Assembly: GCA_037441105.1 (NCBI GenBank)
Contig: JBBISW010000005.1
Span: forward strand, 1-34,021
DNA length: 34,021 bases
Direction of reading: 5' to 3'
Origin: Chloroflexota bacterium
GTDB lineage: Bacteria; Chloroflexota; Dehalococcoidia; GIF9; UBA5629
A model generated the notes under the pieces. That model searched no databases and was not told where the DNA came from. It worked only from the letters and a program-made list of their open reading frames with translations. Numbering within the stretch: position 1 is the stretch's first letter; each line of letters begins with the position of its first letter. Positions 2,251 to 33,976 of this stretch are shown here, piece after piece. The position numbers were made by a program, and so were the translations under genes.

Positions 2251-4656
2251 ATGAAAGTTTCACTTTGCTGGTTGAGAGACTACGTTGGCATCTCTGTACC
2301 CCTTGGGGAGTTGTTTGAAAGGTTGACTATGGCTGGGCTGGAAGTTGGGGGGACGGAGGTAATCGGCGGAAGCTGGCAGAATATAGTAGTTGGCAGAATA
2401 ATTGATGTTAATGCTCATCCGAATGCTGACCGTTTGTGGCTGGTTACTGTTGATTTGGGTAAACAGCAGTCCACTGTGGTTTGTGGTGCGCCTAATCTTA
2501 CGGTTGGAGATAAGATAGCCTTTGCTAATGTGGGAGCTCATCTTATAGATGGTCACAGTGGTGAGCTTGTGCAATTAAAGCCGGCTAAAATTCGTGGATT
2601 TGTTTCCGAAGGCATGGTTTGCTCCGAGAAGGAATTAGGTATTTCCGATAGCCACGAAGGGATTATGGTTCTATCTCAAGAAGCACCTGTTGGTACGCCC
2701 TTGGCTGAATATCTTGGAGATACGATTCTTGACCTGAAAATAACGCCAAACCGTCCTGATTGTCTATCGGTGATTGGTATTGCCAGGGAGATAGCGGCTC
2801 TTACTGGGAACAAGGTGCATATCCCTGAGGTTTATTACCAGGAATTAGAAAAGGCAATAGATTCATTTGCTTCGGTGGAAATTGTCGAGCCCGAGCTGTG
2901 TCCTCGGTATTGTGCCAGTTTGCTTACTGGGATTAAGGTGGTGCCATCGCCTCAATGGTTGCAGCAGCGTTTATTAGCTTGTGGCATGCGACCTATCAAT
3001 AATATCGTCGATATTACTAACTATGTGATGCTGGAGTATGGGCAACCACTTCATGCCTTCGATTATACCCAAATCCGTGGAAAGCAGATTATAGTGCGTC
3101 GAGCAAAAGATGGCGAGACTATAACTACTTTGGATGGAGTTGAGCGGACTCTCAACCCAAATATACTAGCGATTGCCGACAAGGAGCGAGTTGTTGCCAT
3201 TGCCGGCATTATGGGAGGTGCGGATACGGAAGTTACGGCTGATACTACCACTGTTCTGATAGAATCGGCGAATTTCAACCAGGCGGTTATTCATCGGGGG
3301 GGCATTGCTCTCAGGCTAAGCAGTGAAGCTTCGCTGCGTTTTGAGAAGGGGCTTAGCCGAGAGTTGCCGTTAGTAGCGTTGAAGCGGGCTACTCAATTGA
3401 TGGCAGAATTGGCGGGTGGCAAGGTAGCTAAGGGGATTATCGATGCCTACCCGGGGAAGATACAGGGAGAACCTATATTGTTGTCTGCTGCAGATGTTAG
3501 GCGACTACTTGGTGTAGAGATGAGAGTTAGCGAAATAGTAAAGACTTTGGAGTCTTTGGGTTTCAGCTGTGAAAAAGCCGGGTCACCCTCACAAGTTTGG
3601 GTTGAGATTCCATGGTGGCGCACTGATGTCAATTTTGTTGCTGATCTGGCTGAAGAGGTAGCCCGTGTTATTGGCTATGACAAGATACCGACTACTATGC
3701 TAAGCGCGTCTTTGCCAATACATGAGCCAACACCAATGTTGTCTCTGAGGGGACGGCTACGTAGTACCCTTGTCAATTGTGGTTTTCAGGAGGTGCTTAC
3801 TTATTCCTTGACTAGTCTGGAGATGATGAGCAGGCTTTCGCCCGAGCTTTGTCTGAAAGGCCCAACTCCAGTTAAAGTGGCTAACCCTATGTCCAGGGAG
3901 CAAGAATATCTTCGTACCACTCTGCGGTCTGGGCTTCTCTCAGTTTTGGCTCGCAATGAGAGGTATCAGGAGGATAGCATCAGGCTTTTTGAGATTGGGA
4001 GAGTGTTCTTCCCTCGGGAGAGAGATTTGCCTCAGGAGAAGGAGATTCTTTGTGCCGTGCTCAGTGGATTACAGCGTAGGTTGTTCTGGCGAGGTAAAGA
4101 AGAGCCCGTCGATTTCTTTGTTGCTAAAGGGGTAGGGGAAACCGTTTTGTCCCGATTAGGTTTGATGGCGAGCTTTGAGCCAACTGAAGATGAAAGCTTG
4201 TGCCCGGGGAGAAGTGCCAAAATAATCCTTGGTAGCGAGGTGGTAGGTGTTATCGGTGAACTTCACCCTAAGGTATTGGAAGCCCTTGAGCTTTCCGGGA
4301 CTGCGTATCTTATTGAAATCGACTTGGATAAACTGTCATCTTTTGCAGTAAGTGCTAAGAAGTATGAGCCGGTTCCCCGATATCCGAGCACGGCGAGAGA
4401 TATCGCGCTATTGGTGGACGAGCGGATAATCTACCAACAGATTTATGCTATTATTCAGGATTTCCCCTTGGTGAACTCTGTAGCTCTTTTTGACCTTTAT
4501 GTCGGGCAACAGGTACCGGCAGGCAAGAAATCTCTTGCTTTCCGAATTGTCTACCAATCCGCCACACATACCTTGACTGATGAAGAAGTTGACAGTGTCC
4601 AGCAGCAAATTCTTGATAAGTTGCAGCGCGATTTAAGGGCTACCTTGAGGAGCTGA
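2251..4656 (+). CDS. pheT: phenylalanine--tRNA ligase beta subunit
   Basis: 801 aa. The N-terminus MKVSLCWLRDYV is followed by a tRNA-binding domain and a B3/B4 region. The C-terminal anticodon-binding-like domain reads RDIALLVD...SLAFRIVYQS...TLTDEEV. The gene ends in TGA. Confidence 0.95.
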   Translation: MKVSLCWLRDYVGISVPLGELFERLTMAGLEVGGTEVIGGSWQNIVVGRIIDVNAHPNADRLWLVTVDLGKQQSTVVCGAPNLTVGDKIAFANVGAHLIDGHSGELVQLKPAKIRGFVSEGMVCSEKELGISDSHEGIMVLSQEAPVGTPLAEYLGDTILDLKITPNRPDCLSVIGIAREIAALTGNKVHIPEVYYQELEKAIDSFASVEIVEPELCPRYCASLLTGIKVVPSPQWLQQRLLACGMRPINNIVDITNYVMLEYGQPLHAFDYTQIRGKQIIVRRAKDGETITTLDGVERTLNPNILAIADKERVVAIAGIMGGADTEVTADTTTVLIESANFNQAVIHRGGIALRLSSEASLRFEKGLSRELPLVALKRATQLMAELAGGKVAKGIIDAYPGKIQGEPILLSAADVRRLLGVEMRVSEIVKTLESLGFSCEKAGSPSQVWVEIPWWRTDVNFVADLAEEVARVIGYDKIPTTMLSASLPIHEPTPMLSLRGRLRSTLVNCGFQEVLTYSLTSLEMMSRLSPELCLKGPTPVKVANPMSREQEYLRTTLRSGLLSVLARNERYQEDSIRLFEIGRVFFPRERDLPQEKEILCAVLSGLQRRLFWRGKEEPVDFFVAKGVGETVLSRLGLMASFEPTEDESLCPGRSAKIILGSEVVGVIGELHPKVLEALELSGTAYLIEIDLDKLSSFAVSAKKYEPVPRYPSTARDIALLVDERIIYQQIYAIIQDFPLVNSVALFDLYVGQQVPAGKKSLAFRIVYQSATHTLTDEEVDSVQQQILDKLQRDLRATLRS
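4501..4656 (+). repeat. Copy 1 of a diverged direct repeat, formed by the functional 3' end of pheT
   Basis: This segment aligns codon for codon, without gaps, to 6552..6707. I counted 39 mismatches in 156 nt by hand, mostly at third positions. A 26-nt identical core GACAGTGTCCAGCAGCAAATTCTTGA occurs at 4591..4616 and 6642..6667. Confidence 0.85.
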
Positions 4657-4692
4657 TTTATCTGCGACCAGAATTGTTCGAAGGCTTTCCCC

Positions 4693-4715
4693 TTTAAGCA
4701 AAACTTTTGCTTAAA
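4693..4715 (+). promoter_or_regulatory. Perfect 11-1-11 palindrome TTTAAGCAAAA-C-TTTTGCTTAAA, either a pheST terminator or an operator
   Basis: Read directly from the sequence. It lies 37 nt after the pheT stop and is followed by TTTGCG and then a GTTATAAT box (4721..4728). The stem is AT-rich, so terminator strength is uncertain. Confidence 0.35.
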
Positions 4716-4720
4716 TTTGC

Positions 4721-4728
4721 GTTATAAT
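4721..4728 (+). promoter_or_regulatory. -10-like box GTTATAAT upstream of the surface-protein gene
   Basis: A consensus TATAAT lies at 4723..4728, 36 nt upstream of the GTG at 4765. The context AAATTTgcGTTATAATaGGG recurs at 6708..6727. I found no convincing -35. Confidence 0.35.
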
Positions 4729-4764
4729 AGGGTGTGATTATTTACAGGAAGGGGGGAGACAAGC

Positions 4765-6515
4765 GTGAAAGTTAAAGTTTCTGCTCCGGCTCTATGCTTA
4801 GCTTTGCTTTTAGCTCTTTGTTTCGCAGCTCCTGTCCAGGCTGCTGGAATGACTCCAACGGCTGGTGTTGTTGGGACGACGGTGACCATATCTGGATTGA
4901 CAACCGAGCCTTATTCTATTAAGTGGGATGGAGTTGTAATCAAGCAGGGCACACTGCTGGGTGGGGTAGTGTTACATTTACTGTACCTGATGCCTGCGGA
5001 GGTAATCATACTGTCACAGTGGAAAATCCGATTGGTAATTCGGTCTTTATTGGCTCCTTTTCTGTTCTCCCGTCGATAGGCATTAACCCAAACTCAGGTG
5101 TTATTGGCGATTCTGTCACTGTTGAGGGTAAGGGCTTCGCTGCTACTGAAAGCAGCATTAAGGTCACTTATGATGGTACCGATGTAAAGACCGGGGTCAG
5201 TGCTGACAGCAAAGGCTCATGGAGTACGACCTTTGCTGTGCCCAGCTCCGCCAAGGGTAGTCACACGGTTGATGCCTCAAGAAGTACCAATAAGGCGGGC
5301 GATGTTCCCGATGTGACCTTAACAGTCAGTCCAAAAGTCACTCTTAGCCCGGTGTCTGGGGATGTTGGTACTTCAGTTACTGTCAGTGGTACTGGCTTTG
5401 GCAAGGACGAGGGCGGCATTCGAATTACCTATGATGGCACCGATGCAAGGACTGGGGTCAGTGCTGACAGCAAAGGGTCGTGGAATGCCACCTTTGTTGT
5501 TCCTAACTCTATTAAAGGCGTTCATACAATAGACGCTTCAGGTGCTTCGACCAAGGCCGATGAAATTCCTGACGTCACCTTTATTGTCTCCTCTGCTGTG
5601 AGAATTAAGCCGAATTCGGGGTATATAGGTGATAGTATTACCATCGATGGCTGCGGTTTTGGCGGCAGTGAAAGCGGCATAACGGTTACGTTTGATGGTG
5701 GTGTTGTCAAGAGCGATATCGCAGCTAATAGGGAAGGTTGCTGGACCACCTCTTTGGCTATACCTGCCAGTACCGGAGGTAGCCATTTCATAGATGCTTA
5801 TAGTTCTTCGACTACTGCTGTTGATGTTGCTGATGCTAAATTGGCTGTTTTATCGAAAATGGTCATAGAACCTGCTGAGGGCCATGTAGGTTGTGATATC
5901 GTGGTCAACGGCACTGGTTTTGGCGCAGACAAAGAATTAACTATTAAATATGACAATGTTGCTGTGGTTACTAAATTGGTCACTGATGCTAAAGGCAACT
6001 TTCAAGCGAGCCTTAAGGCACCTAAAAGTCTAGGTGGCAAGCATAATTTGACTGCTGCTGATGCCGGTGGTGCCTCAGCCTCGGGTGTTTTTACTATGGA
6101 AACAACTCCACCATCATTACCACAGGTTGTGTCGCCAAAGGATGGAAGTAGGGTAGGCCTTTTCGATCGTGTTGCCCCTACCTTTGAATGGGCCGGTGTT
6201 TCTGACCCGAGTGGTGTTTACTATAGTTTACAGGTATCTTCTTCTCAATCTGACTTTGCGACTACGGTGTTGAGTAAGGAAGACCTGGTTGAGTCTAAGT
6301 ATACTTTGACTGATGCTGAGGCGTTACTTCGAGGAAAATATTACTGGCGAATTAAAGCTGTAGATGGTGCCGGTAATGATAGCGGCTGGACCACACCAAT
6401 ACTTGTTAAGGTTGGACTTATGCCACTATGGGCGTTCATACTTGTCGTCGTTATTGCCGTCGCTTTTATAACTCGATTGGTTTTCTTTTTGCGGAGTGTC
6501 AGAAGGGGGCACTAG
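4765..6515 (+). pseudogene. Frameshifted cell-surface protein with a signal peptide, five IPT/TIG-like repeats of about 86 aa, an FN3-like module and a C-terminal TM anchor
   Basis: ORF 4765..5079 encodes the signal peptide MKVKVSAPALCLALLLALCFAAPVQAAG and the first half of repeat 1, up to IKWDGVVIKQGT. The repeat continues in the -1 frame of ORF 4923..6515 as GWGSVTFTVPDACGGNHTVTV. This indicates a 1-nt deletion, or an assembly error, near 4950..4960. The C-terminus has YYWRIKAVDGAGNDSGW, then the TM segment LWAFILVVVIAVAFITRLVFFL and a basic tail RSVRRGH. Confidence 0.8.
5076..6100 (+). repeat. In-frame tandem coding repeats with a period of about 258 nt (86 aa)
   Basis: Repeat units start near 5076, 5334, 5592 and 5850. 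Units 2 and 3 are also similar at the DNA level, for example GGGGTCAGTGCTGACAGCAAAGG at about 5193 and about 5451. The consensus is xPxSGxVGxxVTVxGxGF...IxxTYDG...GSW...F.VP.S.KG.HT.DA. Confidence 0.8.
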
Positions 6516-6551
6516 AGAGAGCTTCATCGAGCAAGTTCACATTTCCTTAAA

Positions 6552-6707
6552 GTTGGTGAGCAAGTGCCGGCCGGTAAGAAATCCCTTGCTTTCAGGGTTG
6601 TCTATCAGTCATCTACACATACCCTGACTGATGAGGAAGTCGACAGTGTCCAGCAGCAAATTCTTGAGAGGTTAGCGCGAGAGCTGGGAGCGGCGTTAAG
6701 GAATTAG
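6552..6707 (+). pseudogene. Orphan pheT 3' fragment (copy 2 of the repeat) with no start codon
   Basis: It translates to VGEQVPAGKKSLAFRVVYQSSTHTLTDEEVDSVQQQILERLARELGAALRN followed by a stop. The real pheT C-terminus reads VGQQVPAGKKSLAFRIVYQSATHTLTDEEVDSVQQQILDKLQRDLRATLRS. No pheT sequence lies upstream of the fragment. Confidence 0.85.
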
Positions 6708-6730
6708 AAATTTAGGTTATAATTGGGGCC

Positions 6731-7273
6731 ATGATAACTCAAAAAACCAAGAATCTCTATCTATATCTGGCTCTAGTCTGTTTTGCTGGTATTCTGGCTA
6801 TATTTGCGGTTGATGGTTATTTGGGTGTTTATGACATAGTCTATGTAACAGCTCAAGAGCATGAGCAGAAGATAGAACCTGATTATTGGCAGCAACCTTG
6901 GGTAAAGGAACAAGGTTATGGAATGGGAACCTCGTGGGGAGAGTCGGTTTATTTTAAGTACAAGATTGAGAACCGAACCTTTTCGATTTATGAAGCTGAG
7001 GTTGAAGCCTCGATCTGGAAAAGCGGTGAAAAGATGAAACAGCTGTTGGATGAAAACATCTCGGTAGCTCCATTTAAGGACGTAGTAGTGGATTGGAAGT
7101 TGCGGCCTGAGGACCTGGGGGAAGCAGATCTGGGGCCCGGAGGATATAGAGAGTACACTGTGCGGATCAGACTCGGTGGAATAGAGCGGAAGATAATCAT
7201 GAGCTATCATCGTGAGGTACCCATGTATCCTGAGAAAGGAGTGCCGCAGCCTGTTCCAACACCAAGCAGATGA
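6731..7273 (+). CDS. Hypothetical membrane-anchored protein with an N-terminal TM segment and a soluble domain
   Basis: 180-aa ORF with the TM segment LYLYLALVCFAGILAIFAV followed by a charged, beta-rich-looking domain. The antisense ORF 6773..7210 has a poor composition. A TATAAT at 6718..6723 ends only 7 nt before the ATG. I recognise no family. Confidence 0.6.
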   Translation: MITQKTKNLYLYLALVCFAGILAIFAVDGYLGVYDIVYVTAQEHEQKIEPDYWQQPWVKEQGYGMGTSWGESVYFKYKIENRTFSIYEAEVEASIWKSGEKMKQLLDENISVAPFKDVVVDWKLRPEDLGEADLGPGGYREYTVRIRLGGIERKIIMSYHREVPMYPEKGVPQPVPTPSR

Positions 7274-7288
7274 CGAGGTATTAAGCGT

Positions 7289-7462
7289 ATGAGAATTTAT
7301 ATCCTGTATGGTTTTGGTATTTTATTGTGCATTTCAGGGGTTGGTTATTTAGCGGCGGAGTACATTAAATACCTATCTGAGCCGGGTAAATTAGCTAGTT
7401 TGGCTCTAACCACAGCTATGTTCGCTCTATTTGGGAAATATTTCGATGAGAGAGGTTGGTGA
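7289..7462 (+). CDS. Hypothetical small membrane protein (57 aa)
   Basis: I translated this by hand as MRIYILYGFGILLCISGVGYLAAEYIKYLSEPGKLASLALTTAMFALFGKYFDERGW. It has two hydrophobic segments. It is below the ORF-track size cutoff. It ends in a TGA that is in frame with the next ORF. Confidence 0.4.
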   Translation: MRIYILYGFGILLCISGVGYLAAEYIKYLSEPGKLASLALTTAMFALFGKYFDERGW

Positions 7463-7465
7463 TTG

Positions 7466-7714
7466 ATGGGAGCAGTGGCAGTAATTGCCTCTTTGGCTTT
7501 TATCGGCTGGTTGATTTGGCGAGCGGTTGGAAGAAAGCCGATTAAAGCTCATTTGGTAAGTTACATTCTTTCCTGTATCGCAGGAGCTTTTACCTTTACC
7601 TTCTTTCTGAGCATGGACTTGCCAGAGGTGGTAAAGATACTGGCCTCTATTGTCCTGGGTGGTGTGCTGATATTTATGGCTGCCTGGTTTCAAAGACGTG
7701 TCAAACCAAGCTAG
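7466..7714 (+). CDS. Hypothetical small membrane protein (82 aa)
   Basis: The ORF track lists 7463..7714 (TTG), but an ATG at 7466 is the likelier start. The product MGAVAVIASLAFIGWLIWRAV... has three hydrophobic segments. The antisense ORF 7427..7729 looks spurious. Confidence 0.5.
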   Translation: MGAVAVIASLAFIGWLIWRAVGRKPIKAHLVSYILSCIAGAFTFTFFLSMDLPEVVKILASIVLGGVLIFMAAWFQRRVKPS

Positions 7715-7731
7715 ACTTGACTTTGTCAAGT
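7715..7731. terminator. Short hairpin ACTTGAC-TTT-GTCAAGT between convergent genes
   Basis: A 7-bp perfect stem lies directly after the stop at 7712..7714 and 14 nt from the end of the minus-strand gene at 7745. The flanking T/A tracts are weak. Confidence 0.3.
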
Positions 7732-7744
7732 TTGCTAACTTTGT

Positions 7745-10700
7745 CTAACTCGACCGCCGGCGGAGGATAAGCATAAGCAGGCTGATGTCTAGTATCACAC
7801 CGATAACAACAATTACCCAGCCCCAAAGTAGAGCTTGTTGTGATGTATTGTGTGGTTGAGTTGGTGCATCTTCGGTGCGGAAGACAAAAGTAGCACTCCA
7901 GTCGCTCTGTGTTGGCTCCAATGCCATCACTCGCCAGAAATAGTTGGTGCTGTAATCCAGTGTACTCTCATGCTTGTAACTAGTACTGGGGCTCTCTGTC
8001 TCGACCACAATTTCAGTCATTGCCGAATCTTTAGCCAGGACGAATTTGTATCTTGTGGTGTCTGTGAAAGCTGACCAAGTGAATGATGCCAATTTAACCG
8101 GGCAGCCGAGGCATCCGTTATTAGGCGATAGCAACTGAAGCCCGTAGTACGGAGTGCGCACAGGTAAACCAGCTTTGACAATAAACATTTCTCGCCAGGA
8201 TGATGGACTCCAGATGCTATCGCCTGTAGCCACATCCTGAACTGCTATCCTCCAGTAATAGGTATGACCCGCTTCGAGGGCAGGGACGGTCCATGAATTA
8301 CCATTGGCATCGATAACTTTCCCGCCGCCAGGAGGTATGACTAGAGCAGGAGCATCCAGGTCATGGGGAACATAGAAGGGGACAGACCAGCCCGTACAAA
8401 TTGTCTCCTGCGGCTGGACTAAGTTTGAAGTTCTGCAATAGCCACCAATATAAGCGACCTTCAAGGCAAAATCCTCATCCTTGGCTATTTCAATTCGATA
8501 ACCTCGGGACAAGGACACCGGTTTCCATTTGAGGTTTATCTCGCTAGCTCTTCCTGATACAGGGTCGCAATCCACTGCGGTCCGACTTACAGGCTCAACT
8601 GGTGTGGGACCGGTCCATAATAAGGTGTCTGTGTAGCACCAGACTCCGCCTTGTGGTGGATTGTATAAACGCTGGTCAATAACCCATACAGTAACCGGCT
8701 CGCCAAGGTCCAAGCCACCGCAAATTCTTAACCTTGTAGTTGGCTCTGTGCCCAAACTGATAGTGGGATCAATGCCAGCATAAGCTGACGACCATCGTAT
8801 ATACGCCGTATCCTTCCAGAAGGGGATATGATCACTGAAATAAAAGCTGCCGTTCCTCGATATGGTTAGGCCAGTAACAGCGGTTGGCCAGCTTGGTCCA
8901 CCCCACTGTGTTGACCACTTGCCAAATTCAGGTAGAGGCCAAGCCCAAGCGCCGCCACCGTAATAAACTGACCACTCATACATTCCACCCGAATTGATGG
9001 CGAAGATGTTACCACCTTTTTTATAACCGGAATGCGCAACTACCAAAGTGTTGCCGCGAGTGGGAAGTTGTGCGGTTATGGGAGTGAAACTGACACCTCC
9101 ATCTGTGGAGTAAGCTACATCGTAGGCTCCGGTGCCCATGCTGCCAACGATGATGTGTCCCTTGTCATTGTCCGGCGTTAACCCGGTGTAGGCAGTGGCG
9201 ATGCTGTACCCAGTACCAAGCTCGGTAGACACACTGCTGCCCGATACCCAACCCACCCCACTGAAGGCAAACTTTTGCACCCAGCTATCGGGGCTAAGGA
9301 CATACAATGTCTTGCTGTCCTCCGCTGCCATATCTTGAACGGCGTATGTAGGATGAATATTAGTCCAGTAATCACCAAAATCCGGCGACCACATTATCTT
9401 TTTGGTGCCCACCGCTGCCCAGAAGACGATTTGTCCATCAATTTTATCTCCAGCCAGCCCGAGGATAGCATTATCAGTCTGGTTTTGGGCACAGTTGTGG
9501 CTTGTAGTAGGTTGACATAATACACGTTCCCAGAATGTGCCTAGGGGCAGCGCTGGAAACGGTGATACCACATCAGTATTGCTGCTTGATCGCCAGACAC
9601 TGTCGAAACCGGAGCAGTTGGGATTATCGTTGATTGAAGCCAGATAAATGGTCGAGCAGTCAGGAACCGGGGCAATATCAGTGAACTTACTGATTTTGGT
9701 ATCTATCAAAGCAAGCTGATTCCACGTCTCACCATTATTTCGACTGAATGAGAATGCTGATTCATCAAGGTCTTTACCTGTGAGATAAGGGTTTGGCCAA
9801 TTAGCACCGGCGATAAGGACTGCGCTGCTGGCTGTGCCAGCATAGGCAATAGTGCCGTCTGGTGACCAGGCAACCTGGGCGTTGCCATAGCCGGAGGCGG
9901 GAACTCGGGCAGCCCCAGTAGGTGGCTTCATAGCTGGGTACCAGCAGGGAATAGGGCAGGTGGTAGGGGCATCGGTGAACCAGGTCATCACTGTAGCCGA
10001 ACATGGGTTGCCGAGAACCTCACCAGCCAGTAGCTTTCCTGAGGCATAGGTGCCATAGTAGGCGATGCTGGAAATCCTCTTGGTTGCAGTTGCCGACATT
10101 AACTTATAGCCTACGGTGTCATCGAAACGGTAGATGCCAGCGTTGCCTGTAGTTCCGGCATCATCGATGCTAATATAGCAGCGGCGCAGGCTTGGAGCTT
10201 GTCCGGAAAAGTCGGAAGGCATCTTTAGGTCGGCAGTTATAACTTGATGTACCTTAGGCGAGGTGTTAGCTCCGGCGGTGGTAATTTCCACTGGAACCCA
10301 TGTGCCCCAGTTGGTGGTGTTGGCGACCTTATCATGAATACCGATGTTAATGTAGGTGCCGGAGTTGTTAGCTGAGATGACTACTAGAGTAGAGTCGCTG
10401 GCGTAAGTGGGCGAGAACTTCATTGCCAGTATATCGCCGCTGAAGCCCTGGGCTGCCCAGGTGCCTTGCCCCGATGCCTTGAATATGTAGACATTGCCGG
10501 TGCCGAGACCGGTTCGTATGCCGACGGCGATATCATAGCCGCGGTAGTTTGGAGAGATGTCAATCGCGCTTATATGGGCGCCAGCAGGACAATTGGTGTT
10601 CTCCCATTTGGTGCCGCCGTCGGTTGATATCCAGACATTTCGCGGCAAATCAGTTGCGCTGTCATTGGTGACTACGGCTAAAAAGTTGACATTGTCGGGG

Positions 10701-32338: not shown

Positions 32339-33976
32339 TTACCTTTTTGACCTCTGTGCCCGCCAGGTTAATATCCCCGCTGCTGCTATGGCACCGATAA
32401 ACAGTACTGGAATAAGCAGTGATAGAATGAAAACTTGCTGGGACATAGGAGTTACTTCACATTGCTGAACCTCGGACCACGGGCTTTCATTGCCGATGTC
32501 ATCCACAGCTCTTACTCTCCAACTGTAGTTGTCTGGAGCCAGCATGTCTCCCCGGGACAATGTATACTCTGAGTTGGCCAAACTCTCTCTGACCAGGACG
32601 GGTGATAAAAAGTCATCACCGTGAGCAATCTGTAAGACATAACTTATATCACCTGGTTTACCAGAGTCTGACCAATCAAAAGTGGTTTGTGGTGTGCCTG
32701 AACTTCGCTGTCTGGAGAAGGTAATAATTTCGATAAGGCGTTTAGCAGTTCCGAGGAACACATCACCAACTGAATTAAAAGTCTCCAGTTTGGCTCCCTG
32801 CTCAGGGGATAATAATTTGGGTGCTGGGGGTGCAATTTTCGCTGTGGTAAAAACAGCTCGAGCAGAATTACCTTTGTTACCTGCAGCGGTTATCGTGTTC
32901 TCTTTAATCATGCTTGGTGGAACTTCGAATTTGGCGTTGAAGCTACCTGTATCGTCAGCGACGACCACCACATCTAGTTTTGTTTCGTTAAAGCTGATGG
33001 TTATCGCCTCGTCCTTAGCAAAGCCAGCCCCTCCGATGGTCACTTTAGCTCCTCTATTCCCTGAAGATGGCTGCAGCTCAATATGAGGAATAACATTGAA
33101 TTTGGTGTCGGGGACAATTCCCTTTGGTGTAAAACTGCTTCCATAAACACCGATTGTGTGATAGCCTTGGGTAGAAGGTGGAATATTTAATGTGGCACTC
33201 CAGCTACCATCGCCCCCACCTACTATATTGCACATGATTATATCGCCATCCCAGGTTATGGTGATGCCGTCCTCACCGGTTCTGAAGCCAAATCCATCGA
33301 TTTTAATTTCTGTGCCCACAGGTCCGGAGACTGGCTCTACCTTTGCTGCAGGAGCTACGATGAACTTGACCTTGCCGATTTCTGAAGCTTTCGTTGAAGG
33401 GCTGAGGGCGCTGATAAAATGGTCACCTTTCGTCGTTTCTGGGATGTCAAAATTGATGCTCCATGTACCAAGATGATTGGCAGTGGTAGAGGTGGGTAGA
33501 ACATTACCGTCCCAAGTTATTCTGATGTCTCTTTCAAAGGCAGAAAAGCCATTCCCGATAACTGTAACTGGTGTATACATTCGGCCAATATATGGGAAAA
33601 TTGTTATCTGAGGAAGCACGGTGAATGTAGCTGACGCTGTGCTGCTGGTCCAATTGCTATCATCGGTAATTTTAATGGTGTGGCTGCCCTTGTAAGCGGT
33701 AGGCACTTTTAAGTTGCATGTTAGTTCACCGGTTTCGGAAATAGGTATGCCTGTCAGAACTATCTGGTTGTCCCAATGGATGATGGCCGAACGGCCAGCA
33801 AAGCCATTGCCACTGATTAATATAGATGTACCAACAGTGCCTGATGTGGGAGAAACGGCAATATTAGCGGCATGCACCGGAATAGGGAATGCCAGAAGTG
33901 TTAAAAAAAGAATGATAATCAGAGCAGAGGCTGTGGATACGCCCCTAATATGCATTAGTTTTTGTTCTTTTGCCAA
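32339..33976 (-). CDS. Cell-surface protein with a signal peptide, four IPT/TIG-like repeats, an FN3-like module and a C-terminal TM anchor
   Basis: 545-aa paralog of 4765..6515. The signal sequence is ALIIILFLTLLAFPIPVHAA. Repeats follow the pattern xPxSGxVGTxIxIxGxGF...ITWDG...GSWS..L.IP.ST.G.HTI. The C-terminus has NYSWRVRAVDDIGNESPWS, the TM segment VFILSLLIPVLFIGAIAAAGILTW and a tail RAQRSKR. The start may instead be the second Met at 33955. Confidence 0.85.
   Translation of the reverse strand: MAKEQKLMHIRGVSTASALIIILFLTLLAFPIPVHAANIAVSPTSGTVGTSILISGNGFAGRSAIIHWDNQIVLTGIPISETGELTCNLKVPTAYKGSHTIKITDDSNWTSSTASATFTVLPQITIFPYIGRMYTPVTVIGNGFSAFERDIRITWDGNVLPTSTTANHLGTWSINFDIPETTKGDHFISALSPSTKASEIGKVKFIVAPAAKVEPVSGPVGTEIKIDGFGFRTGEDGITITWDGDIIMCNIVGGGDGSWSATLNIPPSTQGYHTIGVYGSSFTPKGIVPDTKFNVIPHIELQPSSGNRGAKVTIGGAGFAKDEAITISFNETKLDVVVVADDTGSFNAKFEVPPSMIKENTITAAGNKGNSARAVFTTAKIAPPAPKLLSPEQGAKLETFNSVGDVFLGTAKRLIEIITFSRQRSSGTPQTTFDWSDSGKPGDISYVLQIAHGDDFLSPVLVRESLANSEYTLSRGDMLAPDNYSWRVRAVDDIGNESPWSEVQQCEVTPMSQQVFILSLLIPVLFIGAIAAAGILTWRAQRSKR

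Follow-up and report, generated by a model that had tools for sequence, protein, structure and literature searches.

We analysed a window of 34,021 nucleotides, contig C5 (JBBISW010000005.1) of the uncultured Dehalococcoidia genome G000 (GCA_037441105.1), in which the end of pheT, the gene for the phenylalanyl-tRNA synthetase beta subunit, occurs twice, once on either side of a frameshifted surface-protein gene (surf). The segment between the pheT body and the second copy of the pheT end (4617-6551) is foreign, both of its flanks are of native type, the second copy is intact, and the junction that precedes this copy is shared with a sister genus. We consider it probable that the locus is a recombination scar, in which a cassette native to the sister genus stands between the pheT body and a displaced but complete pheT end. 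The recombination route itself is one that we infer from sequence comparison.

G000 is a metagenome bin of 1.55 Mb in 114 contigs (88% complete) and belongs to a genus here called g1; g3 is the sister genus in the same family. Related genomes and loci carry G and L numbers, respectively. Our comparisons drew on a survey of 77 genomes of the family, on a g3 set of 14 species genomes and about 25 metagenome contigs (about 27 g3 loci for the junction), and on the surf-less members of g1, which are the genomes G001 and G002 and the g1-type contigs L085 and L087. The features of the locus, all on the forward (+) strand, are listed below by their coordinates in the window.

2251-4656 (+): pheT, 801 aa, chimeric; all five PheT domains are found by Pfam; own-genus type to about 4596, last 13 codons of sister-genus type
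4501-4656 (+): copy 1 of the pheT end, the copy in use; ungapped 75% match to 6552-6707
4591-4616 (+), equivalent to 6642-6667: identical core of 26 nt; the left switch from native to foreign lies in or beside it, at 4597-4616
4617-4656 (+): last 13 codons and stop of pheT, DKLQRDLRATLRS*, foreign and g3-type by identity pattern and nested in g3 in the tree
4657-4764 (+): intergenic part of the cassette, with a 56-nt spacer, a hairpin/palindrome (4694-4714), a box (4713-4732) and a 5' leader with a G-rich ribosome-binding site
4765-6515 (+): surface-protein gene, frameshifted; Pfam TIG, Big_13 and Ig_Rha78A_N; nested in g3 in the surf tree
6516-6551 (+): cassette trailer of 36 nt (J), ending in ..CCTTAAA; common to nearly all g3 loci and L086
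6552-6564 (+): GTTGGTGAGCAAG, candidate right crossover zone; identical to the vestige after the trailer in the g3 locus L056
6552-6707 (+): copy 2, an orphaned pheT end of 51 codons plus stop without promoter or start; type-2/own-genus-like and not decayed
6708-6727 (+): box 2, promoter-like and native, in front of the 180-aa gene, whose transcript is a candidate for being leaderless
6731-7273 (+): 180-aa membrane-protein gene, the native right flank; groups with g1 at support 1.0

The two pheT ends, 4501-4656 and 6552-6707, align codon for codon without a gap, and each includes a stop codon. They differ at 39 of 156 positions (75% identity), which is exactly the hand count of the first-pass annotation that had proposed the repeat. 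Its description of the differences was also accurate: 26 of the 39 mismatches fall at codon position 3, leaving 42 of 52 residues identical, and they number 20/90 ahead of the core, 0/26 within it and 19/40 past it, where the annotation had noted a concentration in the last 12 codons. The alignment likewise contains the identical 26-nt core that it had placed at 4591-4616 and 6642-6667. The count of 117 identities between the two copies compares with 39 +/- 5.5 (maximum 62) when the 156-mer is placed without gaps elsewhere in the window. Copy 2 on its own matches the Pfam FDX-ACB domain (PF03147) over profile positions 49-94 of 94 (E = 5.1e-14). G000 is alone among the 77 family genomes in having two matches to the pheT end.

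Similarity between the copies resumes after the stop codons, as previously claimed, in two promoter-like boxes, AAATTTGCGTTATAATAGGG at 4713 and AAATTTAGGTTATAATTGGG at 6708. The 1.55-Mb genome has no other match to AAATTTNNGTTATAATNGGG with up to one mismatch allowed, and the box thus belongs to the repeat; a general promoter consensus of the organism, for which the 20-nt box had been a candidate, was rejected on the same count. A scan with the sigma-70 consensus picked up neither box, because a matching -35 element is absent from both, and their role as promoters is putative. The 56 extra nucleotides with a perfect palindrome that had been described between the stop of copy 1 and its box are present in copy 1 only. 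This palindrome, TTAAGCAAAACTTTTGCTTAA (4694-4714), occupies the position in which a -35 element for the promoter-like box of surf would be expected. It is imperfectly kept in g3, where L044 (AAGCGAAATTTTCGCTT) holds the pairing through changes in both arms.

Identity profiles reveal a mosaic. From rpmI to position 3350 in pheT, the window is 0.89-0.95 identical to G002/L085, and from there to 4596 it is 0.80-0.85 identical. Identity to the g3 locus L052 is 0.74 over 4501-4596, 0.93 over 4597-4656, 0.86-0.91 from there to 5050 and 0.90 over the trailer. Identity of the cassette, which spans about 1.9 kb (4617-6551), to g3 is 0.86-0.93 over 4597-5050, 0.97 over 5051-6450 (L048/L052) and 0.88-0.92 over 6451-6551, whereas the flanks, represented by pheT and the 180-aa gene, reach 0.73-0.82 with L048/L052 and 0.80-0.95 with G002/L085. 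From 6708 on, the values are 0.85-0.88 to G002/L085 and 0.73-0.76 to g3. The short stretch 4617-4656 is 0.78-0.93 identical to surf-carrying lineages (0.80-0.93 without L045) and 0.47-0.68 identical to surf-less ones.

Phylogenies follow the same boundaries. Trees of pheT segments 2251-4050, 4051-4500 and 4501-4616 place the window in g1, while the tree of 4617-4656 places copy 1 within g3 and the last 40 nt of copy 2 with G001/G002. In the surf tree, G000 is nested in g3 beside L052/L048 on branches of 0.015-0.02. The trees of the pheT 5' part and of the downstream region return G000 to g1 with supports of 0.93-1.0, and the downstream genes group with G001/G002 at 1.0.

The protein sequence locates the left switch more closely. 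Copy 1 reads DEEVDS (g1/type-2), where 23 of 23 aligned g3 sequences read D[N/S/G]EVD[K/N/E], and 13 codons past DEEVDS it reads the g3-like DKLQRDLRATLRS. This succession from g1-type to g3-type residues points to a left switch inside the core, between 4597 and 4616. The right switch appears to lie within 6552-6564, or is at least undetectable before 6565. The earlier suggestion that two pheT alleles from different lineages had met through the acquisition of a pheT 3' end together with surf thus holds for the foreign origin, which trees and identity show. It fails in extent: the foreign part of copy 1 is confined to its last 40-60 nt, and the first 96 nt or so are own-genus. A comparison of GC content between 4657-6551 and its flanks, which had been proposed as a check, gives no contrast (0.46-0.50 in the insert versus 0.44-0.49 in the flanks); this comparison carries no information, since the donor is a member of the same family.

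Empty sites exist within the window's own genus. G001, G002, L085 and L087 share the order infC-rpmI-rplT-pheS-pheT; the 180-aa gene starts 12-24 nt behind pheT and precedes two small ORFs and a 1110-aa propeller gene. These relatives contain neither the surf cassette nor a second pheT end. The synteny check that the first-pass annotation had called for therefore finds pheT directly followed by the 180-aa gene in four surf-less relatives of the same genus, in two of them via the box: in G002 and L085 the box stands directly 3' of the pheT stop, in the same layout as after copy 2. The 180-aa gene of the window is 0.87-0.88 identical at the nucleotide level to that of G002/L085, versus 0.73-0.76 to those of g3. 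The ancestral order in g1 is pheT and then the 180-aa gene, with the box before the 180-aa gene in the G002/L085 branch, and the insert is polymorphic within g1. Upstream of pheT, PheS has 360 residues in L034 (G002) and L085 and 346 in the window and most relatives, owing to a 14-residue insertion.

In g3, the same position carries an older scar. A surf orthologue (>=60% amino acid identity) is present in 13 of the 14 g3 species genomes, and these together with the metagenome contigs show the order pheT, spacer, surf and then usually the 180-aa gene. In nearly all of the roughly 27 g3 loci, surf is followed by a trailer of about 36 nt that ends in ..CCTTAAA and runs directly into GTTGGTGA(G)CAAG.., the codons with which the final 156 nt of a pheT gene open; the remainder of this pheT end is deleted in most g3 loci. 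The vestige is identical to 6552-6564 of the window in L056 and has 1-3 changes in most other g3 loci, and the same 17 nt open the functional pheT end of L088. L056 also retains the last 63 nt or so of a pheT end, 80% identical to that of G012 (from the sister clade of g3); an in-frame stop interrupts this remnant, and a box and a 180-aa gene with an ATG start come after it. The displaced pheT end in g3 is thereby reduced to a vestige of 13-70 nt.

All g3 PheT proteins end in ..DKLQRDL.., an ending never seen in surf-less lineages, which end in ..[DE].L[SA][RQ]ELGA... This genus-wide ending and the vestige after the trailer argue that the cassette brought a foreign pheT end of its own, and likewise its own post-pheT box, into the g3 ancestor. 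The 36-nt trailer resembles the pheT sequence upstream of 4501 no better than shuffled controls do (p 0.3-0.9), and a trailer that is the decayed upstream continuation of pheT was rejected for this reason. The lack of similarity suggests that the join between trailer and pheT end (6551/6552) was originally illegitimate and was made once.

Several g3 loci have changed further at this place. In L045, L043, L062 and L065 the vestige GTTGGTGA (compare 6552-6559 of the window) lies about 40-55 nt after the surf stop and 3-4 nt before a TTG start of the 180-aa gene; it may act as the Shine-Dalgarno sequence of that gene, which could explain the survival of these bases. Eight loci (L033, L041, L042, L054, L057, L060, L064 and L067) have lost the block from the 180-aa gene to the propeller gene, and five of them (L033, L041, L042, L054 and L060) still have the pheT vestige along with some 30 nt from the start of the 180-aa gene, as a second, independent deletion scar. 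The 180-aa gene of L052 is 0.82-0.84 identical to the window at 6850-6950, where other g3 loci reach 0.67-0.73, and L052 adjoins g1 in the downstream tree. This likeness suggests an extra exchange between g1 and g3.

Copy 2 shows none of this decay. It has no indel and no internal stop, and its dN/dS against functional pheT ends (0.11-0.21) equals that of pairs of functional ends (0.08-0.20), which argues that it was a working gene end until a recent displacement. The remnants in L086, L056 and other g3 loci are, unlike copy 2, heavily decayed. Between copy 1 and copy 2, dN is 0.10 and dS is 2.5 (saturated); this divergence points to old, deeply diverged alleles that were brought together, and not to local duplication.

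The cassette has one further g1 carrier, L086, which the tree of the pheT 5' part shows as a relative of G001 and whose surf is intact at 582 aa. Its PheT end is chimeric like that of the window, g1-type to DEEVD and then DKLQRDLKATLRG; among the retrieved database PheT matches, the combination of DEEVD with ..LQRDL.. occurs only in the window and L086. A shortened trailer follows surf in L086, and then a decayed remnant that ends in ..GGAGCAACGTTAGGAAATTAG. The remnant scores nearly equally against copy 2 of G000 and the ends of L087, L085 and G001, all of which are g1-type. The surf gene of L086 is only 0.82 identical to that of the window and is not its sister.

We propose that the host's own recombination, and not an integrase, brought the cassette in. 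The left exchange would have occurred in pheT homology, with the visible switch to g3-type sequence in the 26-nt core. The right exchange would have occurred in the first 13 nt or so of the pheT end, a stretch carried behind the trailer as a vestige of the first insertion. The incoming DNA would complete pheT with its own end and shift the resident end, the box and the 180-aa gene downstream intact; the resident end would be kept whole because the right-hand match is the start of the last 156 nt of pheT. At least two exchanges, with two different g1-type pheT alleles, seem to be needed, because the first 90 nt of the copies differ by 22% and yet both look recently functional.

The likeliest path has two steps. 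First, the cassette would have passed from g3 to one g1 lineage by a left exchange in the core. That lineage would then have recombined with a surf-less g1 lineage, with a left crossover at about 3350-4020 and a right crossover at 6552-6564. A left boundary of the second step within pheT is supported by a shift in site patterns: sites shared with G002 and with G001 stand at 176:46 over 2251-3350 and at 72:62 over 4021-4500 (Fisher p = 3e-4 for the ratio in 2251-4020 versus 4021-4616). A comparison of 4021-4596 with L086 does not single out an L086-like lineage as its source, with an identity of 0.76-0.79 that is no better than to G002/L085. Single-step schemes from a g3 donor were rejected. 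A Campbell-type crossover in the core would have given copy 2 a g3-type front, which is contradicted by its DEEVDS and by its grouping outside g3. Template switching that duplicated the first 116 nt of the host's own pheT end, a duplication that an exchange in the core paired with one at the start of the pheT end would also demand, predicts copies that match there, but they differ at 20 of 90 positions before the core. The order of events given here is a proposed one; neither parent has a close relative among the sampled genomes.

A number of observations weigh against this reconstruction. The functional pheT end closest to copy 2, that of L088, matches it at 46 of 51 residues and 83% of nucleotides, and an exact 22-mer for the parent allele of copy 2 has no match in the genome contigs searched. 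PheT residues 600-801 are at most 79% identical to any other PheT, and the sample contains neither a close donor nor a close surf-less parent. Over their first 116 nt, both copies have an identity of about 0.8 to every sequence compared, which does not distinguish their sources. A single-step event with a g3 donor cannot give the observed pattern, and the two-step path is a reconstruction. A match of 13 nt is short for a RecA-type exchange, and an illegitimate or microhomology step may have been required for the right join. Finally, the identity of the cassette to g3 is uneven, which suggests further, unrecorded allele exchange with g3.

A related possibility, which we regard as somewhat unlikely, is that the cassette is an integrase-free, self-targeting mobile unit, with a spare pheT end on its left and a fossil pheT end on its right that serves as a homology arm. 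If so, insertion at the same pheT codon would have been repeated in the lineages of the g3 ancestor, L086 and G000, with a fresh orphan each time.

An ancient vertical architecture is improbable. On this account, the cassette and the second pheT end were already present in the ancestor of g1 (or of g1 and g3), were lost in G001/L087 and in G002/L085, and were both kept in G000. The carriers G000 and L086 are in fact interspersed with surf-less lineages in the tree of the pheT 5' part, where two gains, a gain and a loss, or two losses are equally parsimonious; a deletion between the direct repeats would restore pheT directly before the 180-aa gene, and the best match of the L086 remnant is copy 2 of G000. 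However, copy 2 has kept its constraint while the remnants in L086, L056 and g3 have decayed, the G000 cassette falls inside g3 with 97% identity instead of being sister to the L086 cassette, and the functional pheT ends of G001 and G002 bear no cassette-type trace. The first-pass annotation had held that relatives all sharing the two copies and the intervening gene would argue against an insertion. The architecture is indeed old and fixed in g3, there with only a decayed second copy, but it is polymorphic in g1.

We give little credence to an integrase-type element that targets the 26-nt core as an att site in the pheT 3' end and supplies a replacement end. Such an element would account for the identical core in both copies with the left switch inside it, for the restored pheT reading frame, and for the occupation of the same position in three lineages (g3, L086 and G000). 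However, neither the insert nor its immediate surroundings contain a site-specific recombinase or integrase, whether in G000, in L086 or in the roughly 27 g3 loci, in agreement with the initial remark that no integrase was visible, and the insert (4617-6551) is a single gene with TIG/Big_13/Ig domains only. The core is the most conserved stretch of the pheT end across all lineages (0.81-0.96 identity), and its identity in both copies is therefore expected without an att function. Homology of copy 2 also reaches 90 nt to the left of the core and looks recently functional, as an element-borne arm would not. The genomic-island alternative raised in the first-pass annotation falters on the lack of a recombinase, the single-gene insert and the old, fixed architecture in g3.

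An assembly chimera, in which a cassette-bearing strain and a co-occurring surf-less strain were joined at a shared k-mer of the pheT end, is about as improbable. The source is a metagenome bin of many contigs, and a misjoin at the vestige would mimic an 'intact' second end. Three assemblies nevertheless agree through both junctions, and this assembly-level comparison bears on the concern about an artefact that had been voiced at the outset: positions 2731-9250 of the window recur unbroken and without a difference in a Logan contig of SRR11582151, and a contig of GCA_034434135.1 differs by one SNP, each with both junctions and the frameshift. The longest shared stretches are 26 nt (the core, between the copies) and 13 nt (6552-6564, with the g3 vestige), which are shorter than the k-mers commonly used in assembly (k = 31 in Logan) and make a misjoin unlikely.

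A local tandem duplication of the pheT end and box, followed by divergence and a later insertion of surf, would fit the direct-repeat layout that spans both elements but is scarcely credible given the saturated dS between the copies, the nesting of the last 40 nt of copy 1 in another genus and the single-copy state of close relatives.

The cassette itself contains one gene, as had been reported, and its intergenic part (4657-4764) is collinear with the spacers between pheT and surf in L086 and in every g3 locus. The surf product has a signal peptide, IPT/TIG Ig-like repeats and a C-terminal membrane anchor. Relative to the intact genes of L048, L050, L052 and L056, the gene lacks one G in GGTGGGG at 4960-4966. 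This frameshift in a G-rich run is seen in all three assemblies (the homologous run in L052 is GGGGGGGG), and both slippage (phase variation) and a systematic sequencing error are possible origins. All 77 family genomes have matches to such Ig-repeat proteins of about 600 aa, mostly with 2-5 paralogues each, and the pheT-linked orthologue is limited in this survey to g3, the window and L086. Further paralogues in G000 lie at 32753-33856 (-) of the window and at C26:9312-10727, with 37% and 43% amino acid identity. Copy 2 shares its frame with the surface ORF (4923-6515), with a TAG stop and 12 codons between them. Read-through of the surf stop would extend the surface protein at its cytoplasmic end by the pheT fragment; the shared frame has a one-in-three chance of being a coincidence.

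The locus offers a clean, datable footprint of gene transfer between uncultured Dehalococcoidia genera, in which the empty site, the donor-type locus and the decayed scars can be compared. It indicates that an essential aminoacyl-tRNA synthetase gene can act as a landing pad and tolerate a swap of its last 13 codons. The 97% identity of surf over 1.4 kb (5051-6450), between backbones that differ by about 20%, is typical of genes that phages, predators or partners place under strong selection. An annotation of the locus should give the 47-aa ORF at 6564-6707 as a pheT fragment and not as a gene.

C-terminal displacement is known from Rhs, CDI and T6SS effector loci and was reportedly described by Jackson et al. 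(2009, BMC Genomics 10:584). An incoming 3' tip and its linked gene are there anchored in a conserved body and the old tip is orphaned, and the resulting displacement arrays spread between strains by ordinary homologous recombination (Kirchberger et al. 2017, PMC5361080). The locus resembles these systems in that an own-genus 5' body (to about 4596) is joined to a g3 tip with its linked surf, and in that the former tip (6552-6707) is kept as an orphan with no pheT homology upstream of 6552. It differs in that the displaced gene is an essential housekeeping gene and not a polymorphic toxin, the function of the tip is unchanged, the passenger is a surface protein and not an immunity gene, and a single orphan is present in place of an array. 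By analogy, the locus would work like this displacement family without being a member of a toxin family.

For such loci, homology-facilitated illegitimate recombination is proposed in two papers (PMC5361080; PMC3240628), the first of which cites for it de Vries and Wackernagel 2002, Prudhomme et al. 2002 and Meier and Wackernagel 2003. The left end in pheT homology and the right end without homology (in the original event) or with 13 nt (6552-6564) are consistent with this process. Unlike those cases, the mechanism is here read from the DNA of uncultured Dehalococcoidia alone, and the recent event probably made use of a junction already in place and did not form a new illegitimate one.

The locus is also like integrative elements and islands in the 3' ends of tRNA, tmRNA and protein genes. 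A substitute end keeps the target intact (five PheT domains), a partial direct repeat stands at the far border, and empty sites occur in G001, G002, L085 and L087. Unlike such islands, it has no integrase or mobility gene, its repeats are 25% diverged where att sites are identical, and it carries a single cargo gene. Replacement-type flexible genomic islands, such as O-antigen and capsule loci, are swapped by recombination in conserved flanking genes. The likeness to these islands lies in an exposed-surface gene beside a housekeeping gene, in alleles that move and in a phylogeny that conflicts with that of the flanks; the differences are that a single gene takes the place of a biosynthetic cluster and that presence/absence polymorphism accompanies allele replacement. 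The scar of horizontal gene transfer is clear, and its mechanism is an ordinary one of a known class, so that the locus is a documented example rather than a new principle.

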